NCBI GenBank assembly: GCA_016840065.1
Contig: JAEOTB010000042.1
Location: forward strand, 1-36,387
Length of the DNA stretch: 36,387 bases
Source: Candidatus Hermodarchaeota archaeon
GTDB taxonomy: Archaea > Asgardarchaeota > Hermodarchaeia > Hermodarchaeales > Hermodarchaeaceae
Direction: 5' to 3'
Part shown: positions 10,947-27,839 of the stretch, one piece after another
Layout of the letters: each line of letters opens with the position of its first letter
Numbering within the stretch: the first letter of the stretch is position 1
Position numbers and translations under genes: made by a program
Notes under the pieces: generated by a model
What the model saw: only the letters and a program-made list of their open reading frames with translations
What the model was told of the DNA's origin: nothing
Databases searched by the model: none

Positions 10947-13900
10947 TTACGACTCTAGCCAGTAATCACTGACCGGGTCGGTGCTTCTCTTGCCATATTC
11001 GGAACCTCGGTTCCGGGCGTTCATCACTACCACAAGAACCAAGATGATTGCGATTGCTACAACCACTGCGTACAACACGAATATACTCGGTATAAGGATT
11101 TCAGGAGGCAGGAATCCGTCACCAGGATCGCCATCGTCGCCACCAGAAATCACCATATCCAAAGCCGTTGTATATATTCCGAAGGATGGGTCGTTGTCGA
11201 TGCTGTAGCCACCCCAATTCGGGAACGCTGAGAGCATGAAGAAGAAGGTGCTCTCCATCTCCCATTGAGATACTGAGCCGCTAGTATCTGATTGGTACAT
11301 CGCGCTGAATGCTCCCATAGGAACTGAAGCAGCGGTGCTGTTGTAAGTTCCACCGTCAAAGCCCCAGACATACTCTTGCCCACCCATTGCGACTTCTGCG
11401 AAGGTCCTGCCTTCTGCTCCAAACATGTAGACGTCGCCGATTTCTGTTTCGTCGTTGCTGCCGGATACTGGTGTGTCATCGATGGTGAATTCTGTGTAAG
11501 AGAAGGTGGATAGCTGTCCAAAGTAGGATATTGCTAGGCTACGTCCTTCAAGGACCGAGTTATCGAAGTGGTGGAGTGTCCAGTCGCCGATATATTGATC
11601 CACTTTTATTTGGATGAGGTTGTTATTGGGATCGGGGTTCTCAGGTGTATTAGCTAGAAGCATGTCGTAGTGGACGTTGAATGCCATCTCGTCGATGTTT
11701 GCTGTTGAGAGGGTATAGTCGAACATGGTTGCGTTTAGACCGAGTAGACCATCAGGTGATCCATAGTAGTCCCAGCAGCCCTTGACGCCGCTACCAAATT
11801 GTGATTGTACGGGGTAGAGTGTGCCATTGACATCATAGATACGTACACCGTATTCTATGGAGGTATTCGCAGGAACGGTGACTGAACCCGTATAACTAGT
11901 AGAGTCAAAGGGTAATGTGAATTCAACGCTGCCTATGCTGTCAATGAGGAAGAAGTGGGTGACTTCATCGCTGTCGACGAACCCGTCTGTGACTGTGAAA
12001 TCGGGAACACCGTTGCCACCGTATGTTGTGTTGTCAGTGAAGAGCAATAGTCCTGCAAATTCTGACCGGAAGTTCGCCCAAGTCGTTGAGTTAGAGTCAG
12101 TGGCTAGCATGAAGTCCTGTTGAGTGCCAAAGCCAAACCAGGACCATTCCCAAGTATTATCTTCTAGCCACCACCAATCATCTTGGAGCTGTTCCCAACT
12201 TCGGTTGGAGGACATCCAGGCTATACAGTTGTAACCTTGTGCAGGAATCATTTCAGTTTCGTTGGTCCATAGGAGGTCCTTGATTTCTGCCATCTCGACA
12301 GCGCTGACTGAAGACATATCGCTTGCATGGTACCAGTAGAACGTTTCGTTCCAGGTGTATGTGCAGGTCTCCGTGAAGAGGCCCATCCAGTTGCCTGAGA
12401 AGAAGACTTCGCTCAGTTCCCCTAGGTGAGGTGATGGATCGAAGATGAGTTCAACCCACAGAAAGTCATGAATCCATGATCGCTCGTCATGCCAGTTGAA
12501 ATGCTGCTTTACATAGTACTGGTCATCGGTTGTCTCGGTGTCTCCGTCAAGGTCCAAGGCTCCTTCGTCGGTGACCGCCCAGATTTCAGGCGTCCATCCC
12601 ATCCAAACCTCGCCGAGGATGAGTTGAGTAGGTTGCCATCGGCATGCGTGACCTATGTTGAAATAGTCCCCGCCTTGCCTGATGTAGTCTTCCCACTCAC
12701 CAGTTTCATTGTTTTGCCACCAGCGACCTCTTTGGGCATGTAGCCAAGGCCAATATGTTGCATCTGGTGCATCGTCTAGGAACTTGGCTTGGAAGGTGAG
12801 TTGAGAGAGGTCCTCACTAACATCAAATGCGATGTTGGTAACATCCATCATGTTTGGAAGTGGGATTGGCGATGAGCTGTTCTGTTCTGTTCTCTCAATC
12901 AGTGTCCAGTTGTAGTGTTCCCAAACCTCCCAAACGATGGAGGTGAATTGCTCCTGAACGGTAAGTGTAGTTATATTGAGTAGGATTCGGATATTCACAT
13001 TCATATTGGTGCTGTGTGTCTCATTGGACTCCCAGTAATAACCCCACAAGTCGTACTCCACTAATTCTAGTGCGGTGCGTTCACGCCACCAAATTGTGGA
13101 GTTATAATCGTATCCATCATGGTCGACGAGTTCACCAGTCGCGTTTAGGACTTCAGCAGGAGCGTATACTTCTAGTGAGATGTTGAACCACTGATTCCTA
13201 TCAACGTCGGTTAGGAGTTCTCCTGTAGTTGGGTCTTGGATGAAGGCATCGACTACAAAGTCGTGTAGTGCAAGGACGAGTCCATCCTGCATCTGGAAAT
13301 CATACGTCGGATCCGCAGGGACTCCCTCGATGTCGCATGTGCCCATATCACGTGGGTTCCAGGCCCATACACGGAAAGTGACTCCATAGTCATCCTCCCA
13401 TGGATCATAGCATATTTGGTCTGTGAAGTAACCTTGCCAGCGAATGGTGGTATCGCCTACAGGACCACTTTCACTGATGTTGAGGACATAGAAATCGTTG
13501 AGTATCGAGTTATTGATGATGAATCCGGGCTCATACCGCCAGTTGCCACCACCGTGTTCCCATGTCTCCCAAGTCCAGGTTGAGTTCTCATAGTAGCAGA
13601 AAACGTCAGTGACGCCCGAACTTGCATTGTAGGTGAATCCCAGTCTTGGTGATTCCCAGGACTCCCATGAACTCCATGTAGTGTATGGGTCGCCCCAATA
13701 ATCTGGCTGGGTTCTGTTGATAATCATGGTATAGTTCGAATTCCATGTTATGTCGGTTAATGAAAAGCTGGCAAATCCGATTGATTCAGTCATGTTCATT
13801 TCGAAGATGACTTGATCGAAGGCATCAGCATAACGAATTGGCTCATGTGCTGCGTTAAAAACGCCCATTGTGTACTCGGGCCAATTTTCAGGTTCCCACA

Positions 13901-14633
13901 TCCACCATTGGTCTTCTAGAGTGCATTCTAGGGCTATCGGTGGAAGAGGGACTTCGCCAGTGTAGCCATAACTGTACCAACCAGGGTTGATGTAGTTGCT
14001 AGCGTTGTCCATACAATGAGCCCAAGTGTTATACACACCAGCTGGGGCTGTGGTGTTGAAGTTCCCTACAAAAGTTACGTTTAATATGTCAGCGTCCTCT
14101 GAGGTTCCGCAAGCCCATCTGCTGAGTTCGAAGAACTCCTTTGGATCCTTTGCGCTAATCGGATCAGATGAACCAGATGGGTCGTTTACCATCTCGTAAA
14201 CACTGCTCCAGACATGCCACTCTGCGGGGCCAGTTTCAGGCACCCAATACTCTAGATAGAGATCAGCCCACATTGTGCCATTGCCCACATTTGCACCGAT
14301 GGCAGCTTGTTCAAGGTGAGTGGTACCTTCGAAGAACCGCTTCGGAATCACTAGAGTGAATTTGAGTGTATCTCCCCAGTTCACTTGAAAGTCATTGTCT
14401 TGGATGTTGGTGTCGTTATCGTAAGTGATTACTAGTTTGAGTGTCTCGCCGAAAAGCCACTCTTGATGTGAGCTATCCCATGTATCGTTTTGTGTTTCCT
14501 GCTTCCGCTCCCACAAAACATGAACAACGGGGTCGGTTGAGAGAGAAGTTTGAGCGTAAATAGCTACGGGAGCAGTAGAGAAGAAGGTTAACACTAGTAC
14601 AGAGATTGCCAGTACACTAACAATTTTTTTCAT
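10947..14633 (-). CDS. Large secreted type I membrane-anchored (glyco)protein, paralog 1; possible cell-envelope/S-layer protein
   Basis: Signal peptide MKKIVSVLAISVLVLTFFSTAPVAIYA, acidic Trp/Tyr-rich ectodomain with >20 N-x-S/T sequons, DLDGD motif, C-terminal TM helix, short basic tail ending DYWLES. Confidence 0.85.
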   Translation of the reverse strand: MKKIVSVLAISVLVLTFFSTAPVAIYAQTSLSTDPVVHVLWERKQETQNDTWDSSHQEWLFGETLKLVITYDNDTNIQDNDFQVNWGDTLKFTLVIPKRFFEGTTHLEQAAIGANVGNGTMWADLYLEYWVPETGPAEWHVWSSVYEMVNDPSGSSDPISAKDPKEFFELSRWACGTSEDADILNVTFVGNFNTTAPAGVYNTWAHCMDNASNYINPGWYSYGYTGEVPLPPIALECTLEDQWWMWEPENWPEYTMGVFNAAHEPIRYADAFDQVIFEMNMTESIGFASFSLTDITWNSNYTMIINRTQPDYWGDPYTTWSSWESWESPRLGFTYNASSGVTDVFCYYENSTWTWETWEHGGGNWRYEPGFIINNSILNDFYVLNISESGPVGDTTIRWQGYFTDQICYDPWEDDYGVTFRVWAWNPRDMGTCDIEGVPADPTYDFQMQDGLVLALHDFVVDAFIQDPTTGELLTDVDRNQWFNISLEVYAPAEVLNATGELVDHDGYDYNSTIWWRERTALELVEYDLWGYYWESNETHSTNMNVNIRILLNITTLTVQEQFTSIVWEVWEHYNWTLIERTEQNSSSPIPLPNMMDVTNIAFDVSEDLSQLTFQAKFLDDAPDATYWPWLHAQRGRWWQNNETGEWEDYIRQGGDYFNIGHACRWQPTQLILGEVWMGWTPEIWAVTDEGALDLDGDTETTDDQYYVKQHFNWHDERSWIHDFLWVELIFDPSPHLGELSEVFFSGNWMGLFTETCTYTWNETFYWYHASDMSSVSAVEMAEIKDLLWTNETEMIPAQGYNCIAWMSSNRSWEQLQDDWWWLEDNTWEWSWFGFGTQQDFMLATDSNSTTWANFRSEFAGLLLFTDNTTYGGNGVPDFTVTDGFVDSDEVTHFFLIDSIGSVEFTLPFDSTSYTGSVTVPANTSIEYGVRIYDVNGTLYPVQSQFGSGVKGCWDYYGSPDGLLGLNATMFDYTLSTANIDEMAFNVHYDMLLANTPENPDPNNNLIQIKVDQYIGDWTLHHFDNSVLEGRSLAISYFGQLSTFSYTEFTIDDTPVSGSNDETEIGDVYMFGAEGRTFAEVAMGGQEYVWGFDGGTYNSTAASVPMGAFSAMYQSDTSGSVSQWEMESTFFFMLSAFPNWGGYSIDNDPSFGIYTTALDMVISGGDDGDPGDGFLPPEILIPSIFVLYAVVVAIAIILVLVVVMNARNRGSEYGKRSTDPVSDYWLES

Positions 14634-14860: not shown

Positions 14861-17800
14861 CTAGTCAGTTACTTTTGGTTCGCTTTCAATCCAGTAGTCG
14901 TGCTCCGGTTCTCTTGCAGTCTTGCCTTTTGACGGTCCTCGTCGTCTGATGTTGACCATGACCACCACGGCAACGATGGCAACAATAGCAGCAAAAACTA
15001 CTATTATGACCAGCAGAGTTGGGTCAAAGCCTCCATCGCCACCTGTGACAACCATGTCGAGAGCGGTTGTGTAGATGCCAAAGGAGGGGTCATTGTCAAT
15101 GGAGTGACCATCCCAATTCAAGAAACTGCTGAGCATGAAGAATAGGGTGCCACTTATCTCCCAGCTCGCAACGGTAGTACCATCGGAGGCCTGATACATC
15201 GCGGAGAAAGCACCGAGTGGAACTGTGGCTGCAGAGCAATTGTAGATTCCTCCATCGCCACCCCAGAGGTACTCTTGCCCGCCCATCTGTATTTGTGCGA
15301 AGGTTCTACCCTCTGCACCGAAGGAATACATATCACCTATTTCGCTGTCGTCGTTGTTTGTGCCCACAGGCGTGTCATCCACACTGTATTCAGTGTAAGT
15401 CGACGTGGACAGATCGCCAAAGTACGCAATGCAAAGGCTGCGTCCTTCAAGAACCGCGTCTTCAAAGTGGTGCAAGGTCCAATCGCCAATGTATTGGTCC
15501 ACCTTGATGCTGATCAGATTGTTGTTGGGGTCAGGATTAGCTGTAGAGTTGGCAAGATGAACGTTATAGTTGACATCAAAGGCCATCTCATCGATTGTTG
15601 CAGAGGAAAGGGTGTAGTCGAAGGCTGAAGCGTTCAGCCCAGCAATACTATCGGGTGAGTTGTAGTAGTCGTAGCAGCTGTGAATTCTGGAGGAAGCAGT
15701 TGTATGGACAGGGTAGAGGGTTCCGTTAACATCGAAGATCCGGACACCAAAGTTAATATCTTGATCAAAGTCCAAGTCCACGACTAGGGTTTGTGTTCCA
15801 CTCGATTCCGTGGAGCCGAAAGGCATTGTGAACTCGATGTCATCAACATTATCGATGAGGAAGTAGTGGGTTACCTCGTCAGAGCCCACGAATCCGTCCT
15901 GAACTGTGAAATCTGGTATCCCGTTTCCGCCATCGATTGTAGTATTGTCAGTGAATAGCAGCAGTCCAGCGTATTGAGAGTGGAATCGTGCCCAACTGGT
16001 TGAATTGTTGCTGGTGGCTAATTCGAACCGTTGCATTTGTCCAAAGCCGAACCATGAGCATTCCCAGGTATTGTCTTCGAGCCACCAGTACTTGTCCTGG
16101 AGGTCGGACCAAGAATAGTTTCTCGCAAAGCATGCGACACCGTTGTAGCCTAGAGCGGGTATTTGTTCCCCAAGGTCCTGCCAGACAAGGTCTTGTATTG
16201 TAGTCATTTCGGTCGCATTTACTGGTGACATGTCATCAGCGTGGTACCAGTAGAATTTAGCATCCCAAGTGTAGGTCATGGTATCAGTTACCAGTCCCAT
16301 CCAATTCGTAGAGTTGAACTCATCGCCAACATCTTCTGGACCTGGTGTTGGATCGAAGACTATGTGAACTACTAGGGAGTCTACTTCTCGTCGGATTTCA
16401 TCATGCCATGTGGAGACTTGTTTGACGAAGTATTGGTCGTCGAGAGTTTCCAAATCGCCGTCTAGGTCTAGTGCTCCATTGTCGCTGATTGCCCACACTT
16501 CTGGAACCCAGGTGTAAACGCTGCCAAGGACAAATGTTGATGGCGTCCAGTAGGTCTTTGCGCCTAACCCGAGCCAGTAAGTGAAGTTGGCTGCGAGTTC
16601 CCAAGAACCAGTCTGGTTTGTCCATATGCTTTGGTTTTGATAGACGTCGAAGTACCCCCAGTACCTAGCCTCGGGTGCGCTGGGTAGGAACTCTACTTGC
16701 AATCCGAAGTAGGATTGGTCTTCTCCAAGTTCATAGACGACATTATTAGCATTCACCAAGTCAGGTAACCCAGAGTATGAGTCCTGAGAAGTATAGTTCA
16801 CCAATGTAGAGGAGTAGATATCGTAGGTCGCGTTCACCAAATTGCAGTATTGACCAATCACCGTCTTTGTGTCGAGATTGATGATAACCTGGATTGTGAC
16901 ACTTGTCAACCAGTTGTGCGTAGTATTGGCATGATTAGAATATCCGTAGAGAACATAGGCTGCATAGCTAGTGTTTAGGTCTTCACGGATGAAGGTGTCT
17001 GGATAGCCTAGATGTGAGGCGTTAAAGGGATCGCCTTTCTTTTCGATTCTTTCTATGGGAGCGTAGATGTCGATGGAGACATTGAACCAGTCGTTGTAGC
17101 CTAGTTGGTTGACGAATGCGTCACTGGGGTGGTCGATTAGATATCCATCGAGTATGATATCGTGGAGCGCAAGGATGGTTCCGTCTGAACGTTGGAATTC
17201 GTAGCCCGGCTCACCAGGGACACCGTCAATGTTTTGTGTGCTCCAATGGCGAGGCTGCCAAGCATATATTCGGAATGTCGTGCCGTAGTCGTCGCCCAGA
17301 TAGTTGGGATCTAATAGACCAGGAGTGGAAGTTGAGCCGCCGCCCGAGTTGTCTGTTGTGTTGGCGAGGTGTATGCCACGCGCACAGACGTTTGTTGTAA
17401 AGTTTGTATACCAACGTACTTTGTAGGGATTTACCAGGCCGCTGGTAGCAGCGTCGAAGTCGACAAAGTAAGTGATATTAGTATTATCTACATAGGGTAT
17501 GTCGTAACCTACCCATTGTCCGTAGCTACCACCATAATCCTGCCAGACCCAAGTCCGGTTGTAGTAGAAGATGAAGGCTTCTGATGTGTCGGTTGACTGA
17601 TTGTAATAGAAGCCCAAGTGAGGTGGTTGAGGTACCTCGTGGGAGGTCCATGTTGTGGTTGGGATGTGTGAATAATCTGGATAGGTCCAGGTCATATTCC
17701 TCCAGTAGGACTGCTGTTCCCAGGAGGCGACTTGTCCTATCTCAAAAGCGGCAAATCCAATTTCTTGGTCCATCACCATCTCAAAGATAACGGTTTCATT

Positions 17801-18577
17801 AGCGTCAGCATACCTGATTGTGTCTAGGGCCTCATTGAGGATACTGAAATCATATTTTGGTGGTTTTTGCCACATCCACCACTGATCTCCAAGAGCACAT
17901 TCTAGGGCAATTGGAGGCATTGGAACTTGGCCCGTCATGCCGTAGTTGTACCAGCTCGGAGTAAAGGTATTGCTGGCATTATCCGTTGCATAGGCCCAAG
18001 TTTGATAGACACCGATAGGTGCTGATGTGTTGAAGCCTCCTGTGAAACTAACATTCAGGAGATGTGAGTCAGCTGTGACGTCGCAGCTAGCAGGGTAGAT
18101 ATTGAAGAATGCTGCAGGGTCACTAGAAGAGGACGCTGTGCTGTCGTAGATACCGCTGAAAACATGCCATGTATTACTTGGAGCGTGATAAAACATGTGA
18201 AACCGTGCATGGGTTCCTTCGGTTTCAAATGATGCGCCAACTACAGCAATTTCCAGTTCTGTTGAACCTTCAAAGAAGCGCTGGGGAATCATCAATGTGA
18301 ATGTTAGGGGGCTTCCTCGACCGGCCCAGTAGTTACCCTCCTCGATATTGATTCCACTCTCGTTAATTATCACTAGCTTCATTGTTTCGCCAAAGACCCA
18401 CTTCTCATAGTTGCAATCCCAGGTGTATTCCTCTGATTCCTGTATGTGTCTCCAACCAACGTGGAGAAGAGGATTGCTTGAAGGTGCTGTGGTTTGAGCA
18501 AGAACCATTGGTGGGATTGTTGCGATACTCACTAGTAACAGTAGAGAGATACTGAGTATACTCGTTATTTTCTTCAT
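14861..18577 (-). CDS. Large secreted type I membrane-anchored (glyco)protein, paralog 2
   Basis: Aligns end to end with 10947-14633 (FGETMKLVI, PPIALEC, GALDLDGD..DDQY.VKQ, AGLLLFTDNTT, NPDPNNNLI.IKVDQYIGDWTLHHF, SIDNDPSFGIYTTALDMV); signal peptide, C-terminal TM, tail with DYWIES. Confidence 0.85.
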   Translation of the reverse strand: MKKITSILSISLLLLVSIATIPPMVLAQTTAPSSNPLLHVGWRHIQESEEYTWDCNYEKWVFGETMKLVIINESGINIEEGNYWAGRGSPLTFTLMIPQRFFEGSTELEIAVVGASFETEGTHARFHMFYHAPSNTWHVFSGIYDSTASSSSDPAAFFNIYPASCDVTADSHLLNVSFTGGFNTSAPIGVYQTWAYATDNASNTFTPSWYNYGMTGQVPMPPIALECALGDQWWMWQKPPKYDFSILNEALDTIRYADANETVIFEMVMDQEIGFAAFEIGQVASWEQQSYWRNMTWTYPDYSHIPTTTWTSHEVPQPPHLGFYYNQSTDTSEAFIFYYNRTWVWQDYGGSYGQWVGYDIPYVDNTNITYFVDFDAATSGLVNPYKVRWYTNFTTNVCARGIHLANTTDNSGGGSTSTPGLLDPNYLGDDYGTTFRIYAWQPRHWSTQNIDGVPGEPGYEFQRSDGTILALHDIILDGYLIDHPSDAFVNQLGYNDWFNVSIDIYAPIERIEKKGDPFNASHLGYPDTFIREDLNTSYAAYVLYGYSNHANTTHNWLTSVTIQVIINLDTKTVIGQYCNLVNATYDIYSSTLVNYTSQDSYSGLPDLVNANNVVYELGEDQSYFGLQVEFLPSAPEARYWGYFDVYQNQSIWTNQTGSWELAANFTYWLGLGAKTYWTPSTFVLGSVYTWVPEVWAISDNGALDLDGDLETLDDQYFVKQVSTWHDEIRREVDSLVVHIVFDPTPGPEDVGDEFNSTNWMGLVTDTMTYTWDAKFYWYHADDMSPVNATEMTTIQDLVWQDLGEQIPALGYNGVACFARNYSWSDLQDKYWWLEDNTWECSWFGFGQMQRFELATSNNSTSWARFHSQYAGLLLFTDNTTIDGGNGIPDFTVQDGFVGSDEVTHYFLIDNVDDIEFTMPFGSTESSGTQTLVVDLDFDQDINFGVRIFDVNGTLYPVHTTASSRIHSCYDYYNSPDSIAGLNASAFDYTLSSATIDEMAFDVNYNVHLANSTANPDPNNNLISIKVDQYIGDWTLHHFEDAVLEGRSLCIAYFGDLSTSTYTEYSVDDTPVGTNNDDSEIGDMYSFGAEGRTFAQIQMGGQEYLWGGDGGIYNCSAATVPLGAFSAMYQASDGTTVASWEISGTLFFMLSSFLNWDGHSIDNDPSFGIYTTALDMVVTGGDGGFDPTLLVIIVVFAAIVAIVAVVVMVNIRRRGPSKGKTAREPEHDYWIESEPKVTD

Positions 18578-18684: not shown

Positions 18685-18812
18685 GGATGAAAGAACCCAC
18701 AAATAAACACCAGATTCAACAAGAATCGGGCTAGAAGACGACAGGCTTATGTACGCGTTTTTCAGAAGCAACTTTGTATCCTAGTCAAATAAAGACGGGG
18801 GATTCCAATAAC

Positions 18813-20435
18813 ATGTTTAAAACAAGCTCAACATACTTTCCACAAGAAACAAAGCTCCTCAAGGGAATGCCTTGGGTGGGTCGCATCAGCTTCGGTGACC
18901 TTGTAGAGAAGGTCGAAGAAATCGCAACCAAGCCCATCATGTGCAATTCCTGTGGGGGAGCTCTGACTAACCCAGGCATCATACAGATTGACCCCAGTAA
19001 GGGCAAATATTTTCTCTGCGAGTTCTGCGGAACCATGAATATCATTCCGAAGGACTTGATGCCCGGAGCCGACATTTCAGAATTCATGCTTGGTCGGCTA
19101 ACTGGTACCGCAAAACCCATCACCGAAGACACACTTCTTGCTGTCATCGACGTCTCTGGGTCAATGAGTGGCGGAAAACTCGAAGCAGTAAAGGAATCAC
19201 TAATCCGAACCATCACCGACTTGGGTGTTAACCAGCCTGACACAACATTCGGATTGATTACTTTCACAACCGACGTTATGATCCACGACGAAGAGATGAA
19301 GGAAATCCTGAGACTATCAGGAGATACAAGATACAGTGTCAAGGAAATCACCAAGAAAGTCGAGAAGGCTCTTGGTAAAATCAAGTTCAAGCCACTGAAG
19401 AAGACAAGGAAAAAGTGGGTAGAAGGCATTGAGAAACTTCGCCATCAGAGCGCTACCGCACTCGGTCCTGCAATGGTCGCAGCATATGTCCTTATGAAGA
19501 AGCGAGGTGGACGCGTCATCCTCCTCACCGACGGGCTCGCCAATGAAGGTGTCGGACGACTTGAAGGAGGCTCCAGCCAAGAGGGCGCAAAGCTCTATGA
19601 GAACCTGGCTGCAGAAGCAGCAAACGCAAGCATAATCGTTGACGTAGTCGGTATCAAGGACCCCAGCGCCTTCATGGCACTAGAAGCCCTAGCTATAATG
19701 TCGATGGAGACCGGTGGCACTATGTTCTATGCTGATAGAAGTGACCTTGCTTCAGCCCTTGGAACTAGCTCTAGGGAGAAAATCGTTGCCCGTGGAGTAC
19801 GACTACGAGTTATCACACCGAAAGGTGTAGAGATAGCTGAAGTCAGTGGGTTGGGTGCTCCCAAACCCGAAGCGGTTCGTGAAGGACTCCGTCTGGGATC
19901 AGTCACCGCTGACCGTGAGGTTTACGTACGCTTGGCCCCCAAGCGCAAAATGAAGGTGGACGAGATTCCCATCCAACTTCAGGTCTCCTACACGGATGAA
20001 GACGGAGCGCAGCGGATGCGTGTCTTCACCCGGCGTGTCAAAGTCACTAAAGAAGCTGACCAGATTGTCGAAACCATGGATGCTGAGTTGCCTACCACCT
20101 TTGCCGTCCAAAGGGCTGGTGAGGAACAGTATCGTGGTGATGTTCGCCGTAGCCAAGAAATCCTAGAAGAGGCGCAGAGAGCCATGGAATCTGCGGGTGC
20201 CAGCGCACCTCCTGCACTAGCTAAAGCTATGAGGAGGGCTAGTCGCGTCCTTGAAAGGGAGGCTGAGGAAGCTGAAGAAGTGGCGGTGCGTCAGAAGGCC
20301 GAATCAGCTCGGCGAGCACCGATGCGGGCAAAACAAGTGGCTGCCATCGCCGACGAAGACGCCGCCGGAAGCATGCAGCGTGCCCGAAGCTCCAGTAAAG
20401 CCCTCTTCGAAAATGCTGAAGAGGAAGAGGAATAG
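18813..20435 (+). CDS. Sec23/Sec24-like protein: Sec23/24-type zinc finger, vWA trunk, beta-sandwich and helical tail
   Basis: PIMCNSCGGALTNP...YFLCEFCGTMNIIP (zf-Sec23/24 spacing), VIDVSGSM (vWA MIDAS), ATALGPAMVAA...GGRVILLTDGLANEGVG, ETGG, VARGVRLRV, IQLQVSYTDEDGAQRMRVFT (Sec23/24 beta-sandwich-like). ATG at 18813 preferred over TTG 18774. Confidence 0.8.
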   Translation: MFKTSSTYFPQETKLLKGMPWVGRISFGDLVEKVEEIATKPIMCNSCGGALTNPGIIQIDPSKGKYFLCEFCGTMNIIPKDLMPGADISEFMLGRLTGTAKPITEDTLLAVIDVSGSMSGGKLEAVKESLIRTITDLGVNQPDTTFGLITFTTDVMIHDEEMKEILRLSGDTRYSVKEITKKVEKALGKIKFKPLKKTRKKWVEGIEKLRHQSATALGPAMVAAYVLMKKRGGRVILLTDGLANEGVGRLEGGSSQEGAKLYENLAAEAANASIIVDVVGIKDPSAFMALEALAIMSMETGGTMFYADRSDLASALGTSSREKIVARGVRLRVITPKGVEIAEVSGLGAPKPEAVREGLRLGSVTADREVYVRLAPKRKMKVDEIPIQLQVSYTDEDGAQRMRVFTRRVKVTKEADQIVETMDAELPTTFAVQRAGEEQYRGDVRRSQEILEEAQRAMESAGASAPPALAKAMRRASRVLEREAEEAEEVAVRQKAESARRAPMRAKQVAAIADEDAAGSMQRARSSSKALFENAEEEEE

Positions 20436-24589: not shown

Positions 24590-24610
24590 ATAACATTTAA
24601 ATATAAGTAT
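24590..24610 (+). promoter_or_regulatory. AT-rich TATA-like promoter of the ubiquitin-like operon
   Basis: ACATTTAAATATAAGT ~45 bp upstream of the 24647 start, within the most AT-rich patch of the surrounding region. Confidence 0.5.
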
Positions 24611-24646
24611 TCCTATCCTATTTTCAATAGACACCTCTGGTGAACA

Positions 24647-24904
24647 ATGCTGGCTAGGAAGATTCGGATCAGGAAACTAACCCCGATGGGCCATGAAACC
24701 GTTATGGCAGATCCGGAAGACGTGTTGCCCATCATCGAGGAGGCGTTGATGCAGCGCCGCTTCGTGTTTTGCGAGCCTATGCGGGTGATGGTTCGCAACC
24801 TCAACGAGGCGCGTCGGCTCATGAACGACCTCCAAGAGGTGGTGATTATGCCGCCGGTTGCCGGCGGCTGCTCCATCCATTTCCACCCAGAAGGACCTAT
24901 CTGA
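24647..24904 (+). CDS. Small ubiquitin-like / beta-grasp-like protein with PPVAGG motif and 11-aa C-terminal extension
   Basis: 74-aa core ends EVVIMPPVAGG (MoaD/ThiS/SAMP-like terminus), then CSIHFHPEGPI; GGTGA upstream of the start. Confidence 0.72.
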   Translation: MLARKIRIRKLTPMGHETVMADPEDVLPIIEEALMQRRFVFCEPMRVMVRNLNEARRLMNDLQEVVIMPPVAGGCSIHFHPEGPI

Positions 24905-24911
24905 TCGGTGA

Positions 24912-25442
24912 ATGTTGACAGTGATTAGTAAGCGTGATGCACGACGTAGTTTGCGTTCGAGCCTTTTGGACCGCGTTCGTAACAACCCCAGAGATGCTGG
25001 GCTTTATTCACTTTCCAAGCGGAAAGTACGAGTGCGATTAGGGAAGCAGAGTTTGGTGTTGCGTGAATGCGACCCGTTGGTAGCAGAGATTGATCGAATT
25101 CTTGGTGAGTATCGCGCACAAGTGCAGGCATCAATGGAGCCTGCTCGTGTTGTCAACGGAAAAGCAGAACGCAGGGCTAAGCGTCTACTCCATGAGATTG
25201 CTAGGAAGCACGAACGTCTCCGCCTTGAAAACGAAGAGGTTTTCGTTACTAGCACCAACGGTGGTCGGTACGTGATTTCCATTAAGGGCGGTACTGTGTA
25301 TTGGCTTCGTGGTAGGACCCGACGATATGTTTGTGTTATCGCGGACTATTGGTACAAGGGAGAGCGCCTCCCCCAGGCAGATCTTGTTATCGCTATCGCG
25401 CTCACCATTGCTTATGCCCCAAGCCTCATCCACACCCTGTGA
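24912..25442 (+). CDS. Uncharacterised protein, tandem paralog A (conserved Cys and LPxAD motif)
   Basis: Aligns end to end with 25523-26053. The true start may be GTG 24921 based on RBS spacing and the paralog. Confidence 0.85.
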   Translation: MLTVISKRDARRSLRSSLLDRVRNNPRDAGLYSLSKRKVRVRLGKQSLVLRECDPLVAEIDRILGEYRAQVQASMEPARVVNGKAERRAKRLLHEIARKHERLRLENEEVFVTSTNGGRYVISIKGGTVYWLRGRTRRYVCVIADYWYKGERLPQADLVIAIALTIAYAPSLIHTL

Positions 25443-25522
25443 AGGGTTCAGCAATTTAGTGAAATGAGTATGACAGCTTTGAGAGATTAAAGAAGAATCT
25501 TAATGATTGGTGATTATCGACT

Positions 25523-26053
25523 GTGACTAGTAAACGTGCTGTACGACGAGGAATGCGTGCAAGCCTACTGGACCGTGTTCGTAGAGACACTAGAGCCACT
25601 GTAATCAAAGTGGTTTCTAAACGCAAGGTGTTGATTGGACATGGTAACCTGAGTCTAGTGTTGCACAACACTGACCCTCTAGCTGAAGAAATCGAGCAGA
25701 TTTATGATGCATACCATGAGAAGCAGATAGCTGAATGGGAGGCTGCTCAGGCCCTCAATGCCGTCAAGGCCGCATCTCAGAGGGCCAAGCGTTTACTCCA
25801 CGAGATTGTACGGGAACACGATTGCCTTACTATTGAGGATGGAGACGTTATCGTTGATAGTGCAAATGGTCGGCGATACGCGATTTCGATCAAGACCGGC
25901 TCCACCTACCGTATTGGGAGTAAGAAGCGCCGCTTTGTCTGCGTACAGGTACCCTACTCCTTTCCTGGTGGTCATGTCCTTCCACTTGCGGACAGGATTA
26001 TTGCTAAGGTACTTACAATCGCCTATGCCCCTCGCTTCATCAATACTCTTTGA
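25523..26053 (+). CDS. Uncharacterised protein, tandem paralog B
   Basis: Shared blocks SLLDRVR, SKRKV, DPL..EI, RAKRLLHEI, NG.RY.ISIK.G, VCV, LP.AD..IA..LTIAYAP..I.TL; GGTGA 9 nt before GTG. Confidence 0.85.
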   Translation: MTSKRAVRRGMRASLLDRVRRDTRATVIKVVSKRKVLIGHGNLSLVLHNTDPLAEEIEQIYDAYHEKQIAEWEAAQALNAVKAASQRAKRLLHEIVREHDCLTIEDGDVIVDSANGRRYAISIKTGSTYRIGSKKRRFVCVQVPYSFPGGHVLPLADRIIAKVLTIAYAPRFINTL

Positions 26054-26123
26054 GAGAATCATTGAGCACCATAACGCCTTTGAATTGGGAGCGAATGTAT
26101 GAGACACAGAAGGCGATGATGAC

Positions 26124-27839
26124 ATGGTGCAGAACCGTGATATTGCAAGAGTTTTCTATGAGATTGCAGATATTTTGGACTTGCTGGGGGACCGGTTTAA
26201 AACTAGAGCCTATCGTCGTGCAGCCCGCTCCATTGAGGGGCTCTCCGAGCACCTTGCTGACATTGCAGCCCGAGGAGCCCTTGAAGAGATTCCCGGGGTT
26301 GGAAAAGCGATTTCAGGGAAGATTCAGGAGTTTCTCAAGACAGGGAAAGTAAAAGCCCTTGATGAGCTGCGGAGAAAGGTTTCCCCTGGCTTAATTGAGA
26401 TACTCCGGATACCTGAAGTGGGCCCTCGTACTGTGCAAACTCTTCACGAAAAACTAGGTATCAGTACGATTGAGGAGTTGCAGAAGGCGCTTGAAGAACA
26501 TCGGATTCGTGACCTGCCTGGCTTTGGTGAACGGAGTGAGGAGAGTATTCGCCGCAACCTCGAATTGTACCTCAAACAGCGCCAGCGAAGACCTCTCAGT
26601 TCAGCATATCATCTCGCACAAAAACTACTAAAAATCCTTAGAGAGGTTCCTGGCGTTGAACAGATTGAACCCGCTGGAAGCCTTCGACGATGGCGGGAAA
26701 CTGTGGGAGACCTTGACATTTTGATTGCTTCGGAGAAGCCAGTACCCATAATGAAGGCGTTTACTGAAATCTCTGATGTTAAGCAGGTTCTCGCTCATGG
26801 TTCAACGAAATCAAGCATTATCCTTAGTGATGGGATGCAAGTAGATTTGCGAGTGGTCAAGCCTGAGAATTTTGGTGCTGCCCTGCAATATTTCACGGGG
26901 TCGAAAGCGCACAATATTGTGTTGCGTCGTATCGCCCAGAAAAGGAAGTGGAAGTTGAGCGAGTATAGTCTAAGCGATACCAAGGATGGCAGCGTCATTG
27001 CCCAGCGAACGGAGGCTGAAATCTACGAGGCTCTGGGAATGTCATGGGTTCCACCTGAACTCCGTGAAGACACGGGAGAGATTGAAGCTGCACAGAAAAA
27101 TCAGCTCCCAAAGCTGGTGGAACTCGGTGATATTCGTGGAGATCTGCACGTGCACACGAAATGGAGTGATGGCAGAGACACCGTCGAAGCAATGGCAAAG
27201 GCTGCTATCCAGAGGGGATACGAGTACATTGTTATCAGTGACCATTCAAAGCGAGTAAGAATAGCGAAGGGGCTGGCTGAGGAAAAACTACGGGAACAGA
27301 TTGAGGAAATTCGAAAGATAGACGAAGCACTCACTGATATCCGCATTCTGTCGGGTGTTGAGGTAGAGATTCTTTCGGATGGAACACTTGATCTTACTGA
27401 TGATGCGTTGGCTGAAACTGATGTTGTCACTGCCTCAATCCACTTTGACACGAGAGGCTCTGAAGAAGAGATGACAGAGCGCTTTCTTCAAGCGATGGAA
27501 AACAAGTATGTTGATATCCTTGCCCACCCTACAGGTCGGTTAGTTGGTCAACGCCCCTCTTATTCAGTAAATCTAGACAAGCTGATGGAGGCTGCCAAGC
27601 GTCACGGTGTGTTTCTTGAGATTAACTCTTATCGTTTTGATTTATCAGCTGTTGAAGCGCGGCGGGCTAGGGAACGGGGGCTCAAGCTGGCTGTGAACAG
27701 TGACGCTCATTGGGCAATGGGACTCGAAATAATGAAGTTTGGTGTAGCTGTGGCGAGGAGAGGATGGCTAGAAGCAGGAGATGTCATCAATACTCTCTCC
27801 TTTACGAAGCTCCGTCAGATATTCAAGCACATCCATTAG
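26124..27839 (+). CDS. polX: DNA polymerase X with C-terminal PHP domain
   Basis: AYRRAARSI, HhH IPGVGKAI, AGSLRRWRETVGDLDIL, QVDLRV, LQYFTGSKAHN, PPELRED; PHP motifs DLHVHT, ISDHS, LAHPTGR, NSDAH. Confidence 0.95.
   Translation: MVQNRDIARVFYEIADILDLLGDRFKTRAYRRAARSIEGLSEHLADIAARGALEEIPGVGKAISGKIQEFLKTGKVKALDELRRKVSPGLIEILRIPEVGPRTVQTLHEKLGISTIEELQKALEEHRIRDLPGFGERSEESIRRNLELYLKQRQRRPLSSAYHLAQKLLKILREVPGVEQIEPAGSLRRWRETVGDLDILIASEKPVPIMKAFTEISDVKQVLAHGSTKSSIILSDGMQVDLRVVKPENFGAALQYFTGSKAHNIVLRRIAQKRKWKLSEYSLSDTKDGSVIAQRTEAEIYEALGMSWVPPELREDTGEIEAAQKNQLPKLVELGDIRGDLHVHTKWSDGRDTVEAMAKAAIQRGYEYIVISDHSKRVRIAKGLAEEKLREQIEEIRKIDEALTDIRILSGVEVEILSDGTLDLTDDALAETDVVTASIHFDTRGSEEEMTERFLQAMENKYVDILAHPTGRLVGQRPSYSVNLDKLMEAAKRHGVFLEINSYRFDLSAVEARRARERGLKLAVNSDAHWAMGLEIMKFGVAVARRGWLEAGDVINTLSFTKLRQIFKHIH

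Follow-up and report, generated by a model that had tools for sequence, protein, structure and literature searches.

A Predicted Beta-Grasp Protein and a Candidate E2-Like Partner Encoded in a Compact Asgard Archaeal Operon

Organization of the operon

The window, by which is meant the whole 36,387-nucleotide stretch of Candidatus Hermodarchaeota DNA that was analysed, carries three co-directional open reading frames (24647-24904, 24912-25442, and 25523-26053) that form an operon flanked by a C_GCAxxG_C_C gene and a PolX gene. The first encodes a small ubiquitin-like protein (Ubl), and the other two encode paralogs referred to here as the partner.

24590..24603, + strand: putative TATA-like archaeal promoter box in AT-rich DNA, with TTTAAATA at 24596-24603
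24639-24643, 24907-24911, and 25509-25513, + strand: GGTGA, a ribosome-binding-site-like sequence motif, one before each gene
24647..24868, + strand: predicted beta-grasp core of the Ubl (AlphaFold2, structural matches, conservation), 74 aa, ending PPVAGG; Gly-Gly codons 24863-24868
24869..24904, + strand: tail of 11 residues after the Gly-Gly, starting CSIHF and followed by TGA; tails occur throughout the window clade
24912..25442, + strand: partner paralog 1, 176 aa from ATG; Cys codon 25332-25334; Ile replaces the Lys of the family
25523..26053, + strand: partner paralog 2, 176 aa; H99, C140 (codon 25940-25942), D157, and K162

The three co-directional genes and the AT-rich upstream DNA (27 per cent GC) agree with a preliminary description made from this DNA. 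The TTTAAATA box recurs ∼45-55 nt 5' of the small gene in the related loci L001, L029, and L049. The GGTGA motif is kept in loci L001 and L003. Paralog 1 probably starts at GTG 24921 (173 aa), because this codon lies 9 nt past its GGTGA, the same spacing as in paralog 2. Both 176-residue paralogs carry the shared motifs originally listed for them and are 49 per cent identical over their full length (tblastn E 5e-43). Beyond these two, no further partner copy was found in the window genome, and close relatives have one or two, so that a pair of paralogs is not a constant feature. As part of the explanation preferred below, the two paralogs would stem from a duplication that is recent and variable, and would not carry out separate steps of a cascade. 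What had been described as a protein ending in PPVAGG does have that 74-residue core; the reading frame, however, is 85 residues long, and the Gly-Gly is followed by 11 residues that the earlier account omitted.

A contig from another sample run matches 24782-26300 without any difference. None of the three proteins had a meaningful match in Pfam, NCBIfam, PHROGs, or PADLOC. An antisense gene overlying the Ubl gene was considered and rejected, as the stop of the antisense frame is not conserved. Elsewhere in the window are an IS605-family TnpB (Cas12f1-like) gene with high GC3 (427-1692, + strand; 0.70), two adjoining large reading frames of 1228 and 1238 aa (10947-14633 and 14861-18577, − strand) that had no Pfam match at E 0.01, and a Sec23/Sec24 homolog with zinc finger, trunk, and beta-sandwich (18774-20435, + strand), which also occurs near the cassette in L049 and marks the contig as Asgard archaeal.

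The small protein

AlphaFold2 models residues 1-74 of the Ubl at a pLDDT of 93, with the strand-strand-helix-strand-strand-helix-strand order of a beta-grasp. Nearly all of the 50 best structural matches to this model are beta-grasp domains (PB1, MoaD, ISG15, SUMO, and bacterial Ubl) at Z 4.2-5.6, the best of them having an rmsd of 3.4 Å over 70 residues at Z 5.6. These scores are modest, yet the uniform match list, the topology, and the tail agree, and the predicted fold of the protein is a beta-grasp, as had been anticipated. Profile searches yielded forty-two homologs in which L11, G15, G73, and G74 are invariant; the Gly-Gly pair, whose conservation had been set as a test, follows the last strand in 42/42.

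The relation to named families is distant. The ThiS profile (PF02597) scores the window Ubl at 13 bits, below the cut-off of 22.5 bits, and Pfam ThiS matches in 7/42 homologs are weak (best E 0.013). Judged by these profile scores the Ubl is a family separate from ThiS, set apart because it falls below the ThiS cut-off. Sequence searches of the PDB were uninformative (SAMP1, E 0.6). Since PPxxGG-like ends occur in 5/9,679 short reading frames of the window genome, the motif alone is weak evidence; a chance origin of the PPVAGG end was nonetheless rejected because of its conservation across the 42 homologs and the gene linkage.

The codon composition of the Ubl gene (24647-24868) is unusual. 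Its GC3 is 0.77 against a genome mean of 0.46, which places it in the top 0.2 per cent of short reading frames, and its four-fold synonymous divergence from two relatives is 0.14-0.17, compared with 0.35-0.63 in neighbouring genes. The RNA of the gene folds at a z of −2.5, and GC3 in sister lineages is near 0.5. High expression was rejected as the meaning of the high GC3, given that GC3 is average in the thermosome genes (0.42-0.47) and in an EF-1a fragment (0.49). Constraint at the RNA level or a gene-specific sweep from a high-GC donor might be involved. Contigs from RNA libraries span part of the Ubl gene of relatives, although contigs cannot show transcription.

The partner protein

A profile search of 1.84 billion representatives with the partner gave 46 proteins. 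The homologs share a domain of ∼100 residues with an invariant Cys, Asp, and Leu (C140, D157, and L164 of paralog 2), the Cys and the Asp being present in 47/47; conservation of the Cys had been another of the tests, and the residue also lies in the predicted interface described below. The V-C-V and LPxAD motifs first reported as invariant are so in the window paralogs, whereas family-wide only the Cys, the Asp, and the one Leu are. In one homolog (P0011) the Cys domain occurs twice, in tandem, within the same chain.

The domain of paralog 2 (residues ∼85-176) was predicted by AlphaFold2 at a pLDDT of 92. The model opens with a long helix, continues through a meander of five strands, the fifth of which holds the Cys, and closes with a loop and a second helix. 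The top 50 matches among solved structures are mostly RWD, UEV, and E2 domains, led by FANCL (Z 5.4, rmsd 3.0 Å over 74 residues), the GCN2 RWD domain (5.3), and the Vps23 UEV domain (5.0). E2 enzymes proper follow with UBE2S (Z 4.4) and the Serratia CBASS E2 (8hsb_B, Z 4.1), and proteins of bacterial systems with 9eav_D, which contains BubB (Z 3.9), and the Bil E2 8tyz_C (Z 3.7). These matches have an rmsd of 3-4 Å and an identity of at most 16 per cent, in a Z range that may reflect a mere common arrangement, and the alignments to E2 structures end after the crossover helix. Frataxin/CyaY also matches, at Z 4.0. The C-terminal ∼100 residues of the partner are thus likely, on the strength of the model, to be a truncated E2/RWD-like domain; this is likely and not proven because frataxin scores nearly as well. 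Foldseek against the PDB and BFVD returned nothing at E≤0.001. The fold had initially been left between E2-like and protease-like, and the RWD, UEV, and UBC matches make it more E2-like than was supposed, though at modest Z and with that negative Foldseek result. No papain-like, MoaE, ThiG, or rhodanese fold was among the top structural matches, which does not by itself exclude such folds.

In a profile alignment (hhalign) to 21 Asgard E2s, the partner Cys fell on the catalytic Cys of the E2s, a result short of significance (P 0.088, against 0.26 and 0.30 for reversed controls). The homologs gave no UQ_con (PF00179) match, and the family alignment has no HPN motif before the Cys. Among predicted structures, the named family closest to the partner is DUF7737, clusters bearing this domain matching at TM 0.68 and 0.65 over ∼95-99 residues, both sides of the comparison being models, and unnamed phage and Chloroflexota clusters match at TM 0.71-0.72. 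The DUF7737 profile (PF24879) matches 17/47 partner homologs weakly (best E 1.4e-3, below the 27-bit cut-off). By its modelled structure the partner is a remote relative of Pfam DUF7737 and, as a domain, is not unprecedented.

Gene linkage and distribution

In 400 Asgard genomes the Ubl and partner profiles each match 10 genomes, and nine are common to both; the tenth genome of the partner profile has the small gene on inspection, and the tenth Ubl match is marginal. The partner is preceded by the small gene in 17/17 loci whose upstream DNA can be read, including those of Atabeyarchaeia and of the giant phages LR756511 and Rctr197k, and the linkage between the two families that was to be looked for is therefore present. 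The small proteins of the phages were identified from where their genes lie, from their terminal Gly, and from an alignment, and not through the Asgard profile. Searches with each of the two LR756511 genes recovered only Rctr197k, where the matches are adjacent genes. In LR756511 a short reading frame lies between the Ubl and partner genes. The small protein of Rctr197k (L048:3174-3602) has a single-Gly end (IPG) and a seemingly duplicated N-terminal unit, and its gene is near a phage CRISPR repeat region.

The distribution is patchy: 15 genomes of the sister genus and 2/3 other genomes of the genus (72-91 per cent complete) yielded no copy of the module. Pattern scans of viral and metagenome contigs found none, nor did tblastn against plasmids. 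Matches in phage PaBG and in Xanthomonas/Pseudomonas phages were discarded (E 3-8; PaBG failed the family profile).

Several loci have gene arrangements of their own. At Atabeyarchaeia-type loci (L004:1480-2960, also L005 and L010) the Cys domain is part of a fusion, joined N-terminally to a Ras-family domain whose P-loop is degenerate; an M54 archaemetzincin gene follows the fusion gene, and the opposite strand carries a radical SAM gene upstream. Another Asgard genome (G021, L035:871-1830) has a fusion in the reverse order, a Roc/small-GTPase-like domain followed by a weak DUF7737-like domain, and no Gly-Gly gene was seen beside it. At L031:354-3062 a gene for an FtsH-like AAA + M41 protease directly follows the Ubl-partner pair, an adjacency that would fit tagging for degradation in that organism.

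The predicted complex

The predicted complex of the Ubl with paralog 2 scores 0.82, a mark reached by 58/80 solved complexes and 2/110 mismatched pairs; the best of three controls scores 0.01. The runs agree in at least 97 per cent of contacts, and the pLDDT of the partner is at least 88. On the partner side the interface includes C140, D157, K162, and H99, and on the Ubl side residues 11-16, 37-41, 46-48, 66, and 68-74. L11, F41, V66, and M68 of the Ubl pack against the partner helix after the Cys, a placement of the sheet face that we take to be like the closed E2~ubiquitin arrangement. Interface columns are better conserved than the others on both chains (0.59 vs 0.38; 0.69 vs 0.51). The score may partly stem from likeness to solved E2-ubiquitin structures. 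Docking of the Gly-Gly tail at the conserved Cys, which the preliminary description had put forward for complex prediction, is borne out to the extent that both are in this interface, but the Cys-Gly pair is absent from the 25 best-resolved contacts.

A clade with a capped Gly-Gly

Among the matches listed, the Gly-Gly end is free in 33/34 other Ubl homologs, whereas every copy read from the window clade carries a tail of 3-15 aa, of the CSIHF/CPIHF type in the genus and ATTSSG and THH in two sister lineages. All eight members of the 90 per cent cluster of the window Ubl carry tails. Capping of the Gly-Gly thus appears, from the sequences compared, to be peculiar to the window clade, an observation that is new here. 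Sequencing error and recent loss of a stop codon were rejected as origins of the tails, which occur in independent assemblies and in three sub-lineages. Within the genus the Ubl core is 97-99 per cent identical, compared with 75-91 per cent for neighbouring proteins, while the tails diverge, and a stable core with diverging tails is the pattern expected of a removable pro-peptide.

Changes in the partner coincide with the cap. The seven partner proteins from the capped clade group together in the tree (support 92/91), a placement that is not fully settled. K162 is present in 40/40 partners outside this group and in 1/7 inside it, the exception being paralog 2 of the window; the partner search did not select for the Lys, because its profile was built from the capped clade. 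Only two residues were fixed by the capped group against the rest, H93 (6/7 vs 4/40) and H99 (7/7 vs 4/40), and H99 touches the Ubl in the predicted complex. Cap, loss of Lys, and gain of His on one branch are a single coincidence and not a statistical test, and they are suggestive only. H16 of the Ubl was also considered as a catalytic base; the residue is Asp in phage and two cellular homologs.

E1, E2, and JAMM proteins

The window yielded no ThiF/E1, UBC, or JAMM homolog, and phmmer searches with the window genome's own proteins found no E1, E2, or JAMM in 20 module loci (2-36 kb, several on short contigs). Elsewhere the window genome encodes four ThiF/E1, two UBC-family, and four JAMM proteins, including a Ub-E2-E1 cluster on contig C69, and a separate canonical SAMP/MoaD on contig C10. 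The original characterization of the system as one without E1 or JAMM thus holds for the window and not for the genome, and the module cannot be read as independent of either, because the genome encodes both in trans. A second ubiquitin-system cluster (contig C84, L038) contains a ThiF/E1, a JAMM, and a 273-aa protein that resembles a fusion of a ubiquitin-like and an E2-like domain, joined after a VG motif. In the flanks examined, genes for sulfur relay or cofactors do not recur.

Interpretation

The explanation favoured here, with a probability of about one half, is that the operon encodes a dedicated Ubl and mini-E2 acyl-carrier module. The folds, gene linkage, invariant residues, and complex are computed, and from them we infer all of the covalent chemistry. 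The mini-E2 partner would bind the Ubl through its beta-sheet face and Gly-Gly tail, the invariant Cys would take the Ubl as a thioester, and the Ubl would then be transferred to an amine of a target protein or of the partner itself. In lineages with a free Gly-Gly, the Ubl would be activated in trans by a housekeeping ThiF/E1. In the capped clade the tail would have to come off first, through a genome-encoded JAMM protease or the partner's own Cys, and removal by the Cys would load the Ubl without ATP. A bolder form of this proposal, credible but unlikely, is that the capped-clade module is an ATP- and E1-independent Ubl ligase in which the Cys, aided by the newly fixed His, cleaves after the Gly-Gly and stays bound to the Ubl in a thioester that serves for transfer; a switch from E1-driven to self-driven loading would then be recorded in the cap, the missing Lys, and the new His. 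The suggestion that the paralogs are a Cys-dependent conjugating enzyme for the Ubl is supported as far as the E2-like fold and the invariant Cys at an interface shared with the tail, conjugation itself being part of the proposed chemistry. Four ThiF/E1 proteins in trans, the linkage, the invariant Cys, Asp, and Gly-Gly, and the complex score of 0.82 against 0.01 argue for the Ubl and mini-E2 explanation; the modest Z-scores (5.4 at best), the missing HPN, the lack of an E1 in the 20 loci, and the capped Gly-Gly of this very copy argue against it.

There is some reason to consider a non-covalent pair instead, in which the Ubl would be a stable subunit, an adaptor, or an antitoxin-like inhibitor bound by a UEV/RWD-like receptor. 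The Lys would then bind the carboxylate of the free C terminus, having been lost once the tail was capped, and the Cys would have a structural or redox role. Non-catalytic RWD/UEV domains (FANCL, GCN2, and Vps23) give the best structural matches, no E1 was detected nearby, and the coincidence of capped Gly-Gly and Lys loss is what would be expected if the tail were never removed. Yet the Gly-Gly is invariant even in the capped clade, where tails diverge freely, the Cys, kept without exception in Asgard archaea and phages alike, is part of the predicted interface, and an interface His was fixed in the capped clade, all of which makes such a pair credible but unlikely. An E2-like scaffold might also serve a Ubl-specific cysteine protease, a maturase or deconjugase that hydrolyses after the Gly-Gly without transfer. 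The invariant Cys and Asp and the fixed interface His of the capped clade would suit this role, and a cysteine protease of E2 fold has been documented (10.1101/2022.05.25.493364), but the family as a whole has no conserved His (4/40 outside the capped clade) and maturation is unneeded in most lineages, which have a free Gly-Gly; we regard a protease as distinctly improbable.

A sulfur-carrier pair like MoaD-MoaE or ThiS-ThiG, with a thiocarboxylate on the Ubl and a persulfide handled by the partner Cys, is harder still to credit. The nearest named families are ThiS/MoaD/SAMP (weak ThiS matches in 7/42 homologs; MoaD at Z 4.9 and 26 per cent identity) and the PPVxGG end is MoaD-like; against this, sulfur-relay and cofactor genes do not recur in the flanks examined, the partner is E2/RWD-like with no MoaE, ThiG, or rhodanese in its top matches, and neither the presence in giant phages nor the fusion to a degenerate GTPase suggests cofactor synthesis. 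The module might, finally, be real elsewhere and degenerated in the window clade through loss of a stop codon and of an active-site Lys. The TGC after the Gly-Gly is one change from TGA, an otherwise invariant Lys has been lost, and paralog number varies, but the Ubl core is kept at 97-99 per cent identity in a genus whose neighbouring proteins are at 75-91 per cent, and the Cys, Asp, Gly-Gly, and promoter box are retained in three sub-lineages with different tails. Such decay is very improbable.

If the Ubl and mini-E2 module does act covalently, it would be a very small unit of Ubl conjugation, of two genes and with an E2-like domain of ∼100 residues, that is common to Asgard archaea and giant phages and has structural relatives in bacteria. 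It would then bear on the origin of the E2 fold and of ubiquitin conjugation and give DUF7737 a function. The window clade offers a built-in comparison of capped with free Gly-Gly and of Lys with His, and the proteins of the module are all small and soluble.

Comparison with known systems

No paper describing the Ubl-partner pair was found in the literature searched, outside which most subscription papers lie, and none was found that uses the term DUF7737. DUF7737 (PF24879) is the C-terminal domain of bacterial DUF4132 proteins and has the same predicted fold as the partner (TM 0.65-0.68), but the partner is a stand-alone protein of 176 aa without DUF4132. Above the family cut-off the DUF7737 profile had no match in the 61 genomes searched, and in the window genome none at E≤0.01. 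The DUF4132 operon of D. radiodurans (drA0165-drA0166) is DdrO-regulated and has no assigned function (PMC8533742).

With a canonical E2 (PF00179) and ubiquitin, as found on contig C69, the module shares, as modelled, the layout of helix, beta-meander, Cys, and crossover helix and the placement of a beta-grasp Gly-Gly protein against the helix after the Cys. The partner differs in having no HPN, no C-terminal helix pair, no Pfam match, and no linked E1, and instead has an invariant Asp and a near-invariant Lys on the crossover helix. Among bacterial E2s, the non-canonical ones are likewise without the two final helices of the UBC fold (PMC11601596).

The E2 of the Serratia marcescens CBASS system works without an E1: by means of a Cys and a His it trims from cGAS the residue that follows the reactive Gly and makes both thioester and isopeptide bonds (Yan et al., 10.1101/2022.05.25.493364), which is a documented precedent for removal of the cap by the E2-like partner itself. 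If the partner is E2-like as modelled, both systems pair an E2-fold protein, in an operon that lacks an E1, with a substrate that extends beyond its reactive Gly. The substrate there is a CD-NTase, whereas here it would be a beta-grasp protein; the His there is catalytic, whereas H99 is fixed only in the capped clade (7/7), where it touches the Ubl in the model. No CD-NTase was seen in the flanks of the module, and its proteins had no match to a defence system in PADLOC.

Like the module as modelled, the Bub and Bil operons (PMC11601596, PMC10557695), together with the operon classes that Iyer et al. 2006 described (PMC1779556), combine a Ubl with a truncated, divergent UBC-fold partner, and the Ubl is made as a precursor, as in the capped clade. 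Those operons, however, have their own E1 and JAB peptidase, and the module has neither in any locus read. SAMP, MoaD, ThiS, and Urm1 share the beta-grasp fold and the PPxxGG end with the Ubl, which differs from them in falling below the ThiS cut-off, in its distinct L-x-x-x-G-[HD] hairpin, and in its dedicated E2-like partner. Conjugatable Ubls and sulfur carriers have a free C-terminal Gly in the encoded product, unlike the window Ubl with its 11-aa tail. As reconstructed here, the module would work like known Ubl-E2 systems and yet falls outside each of the named families.
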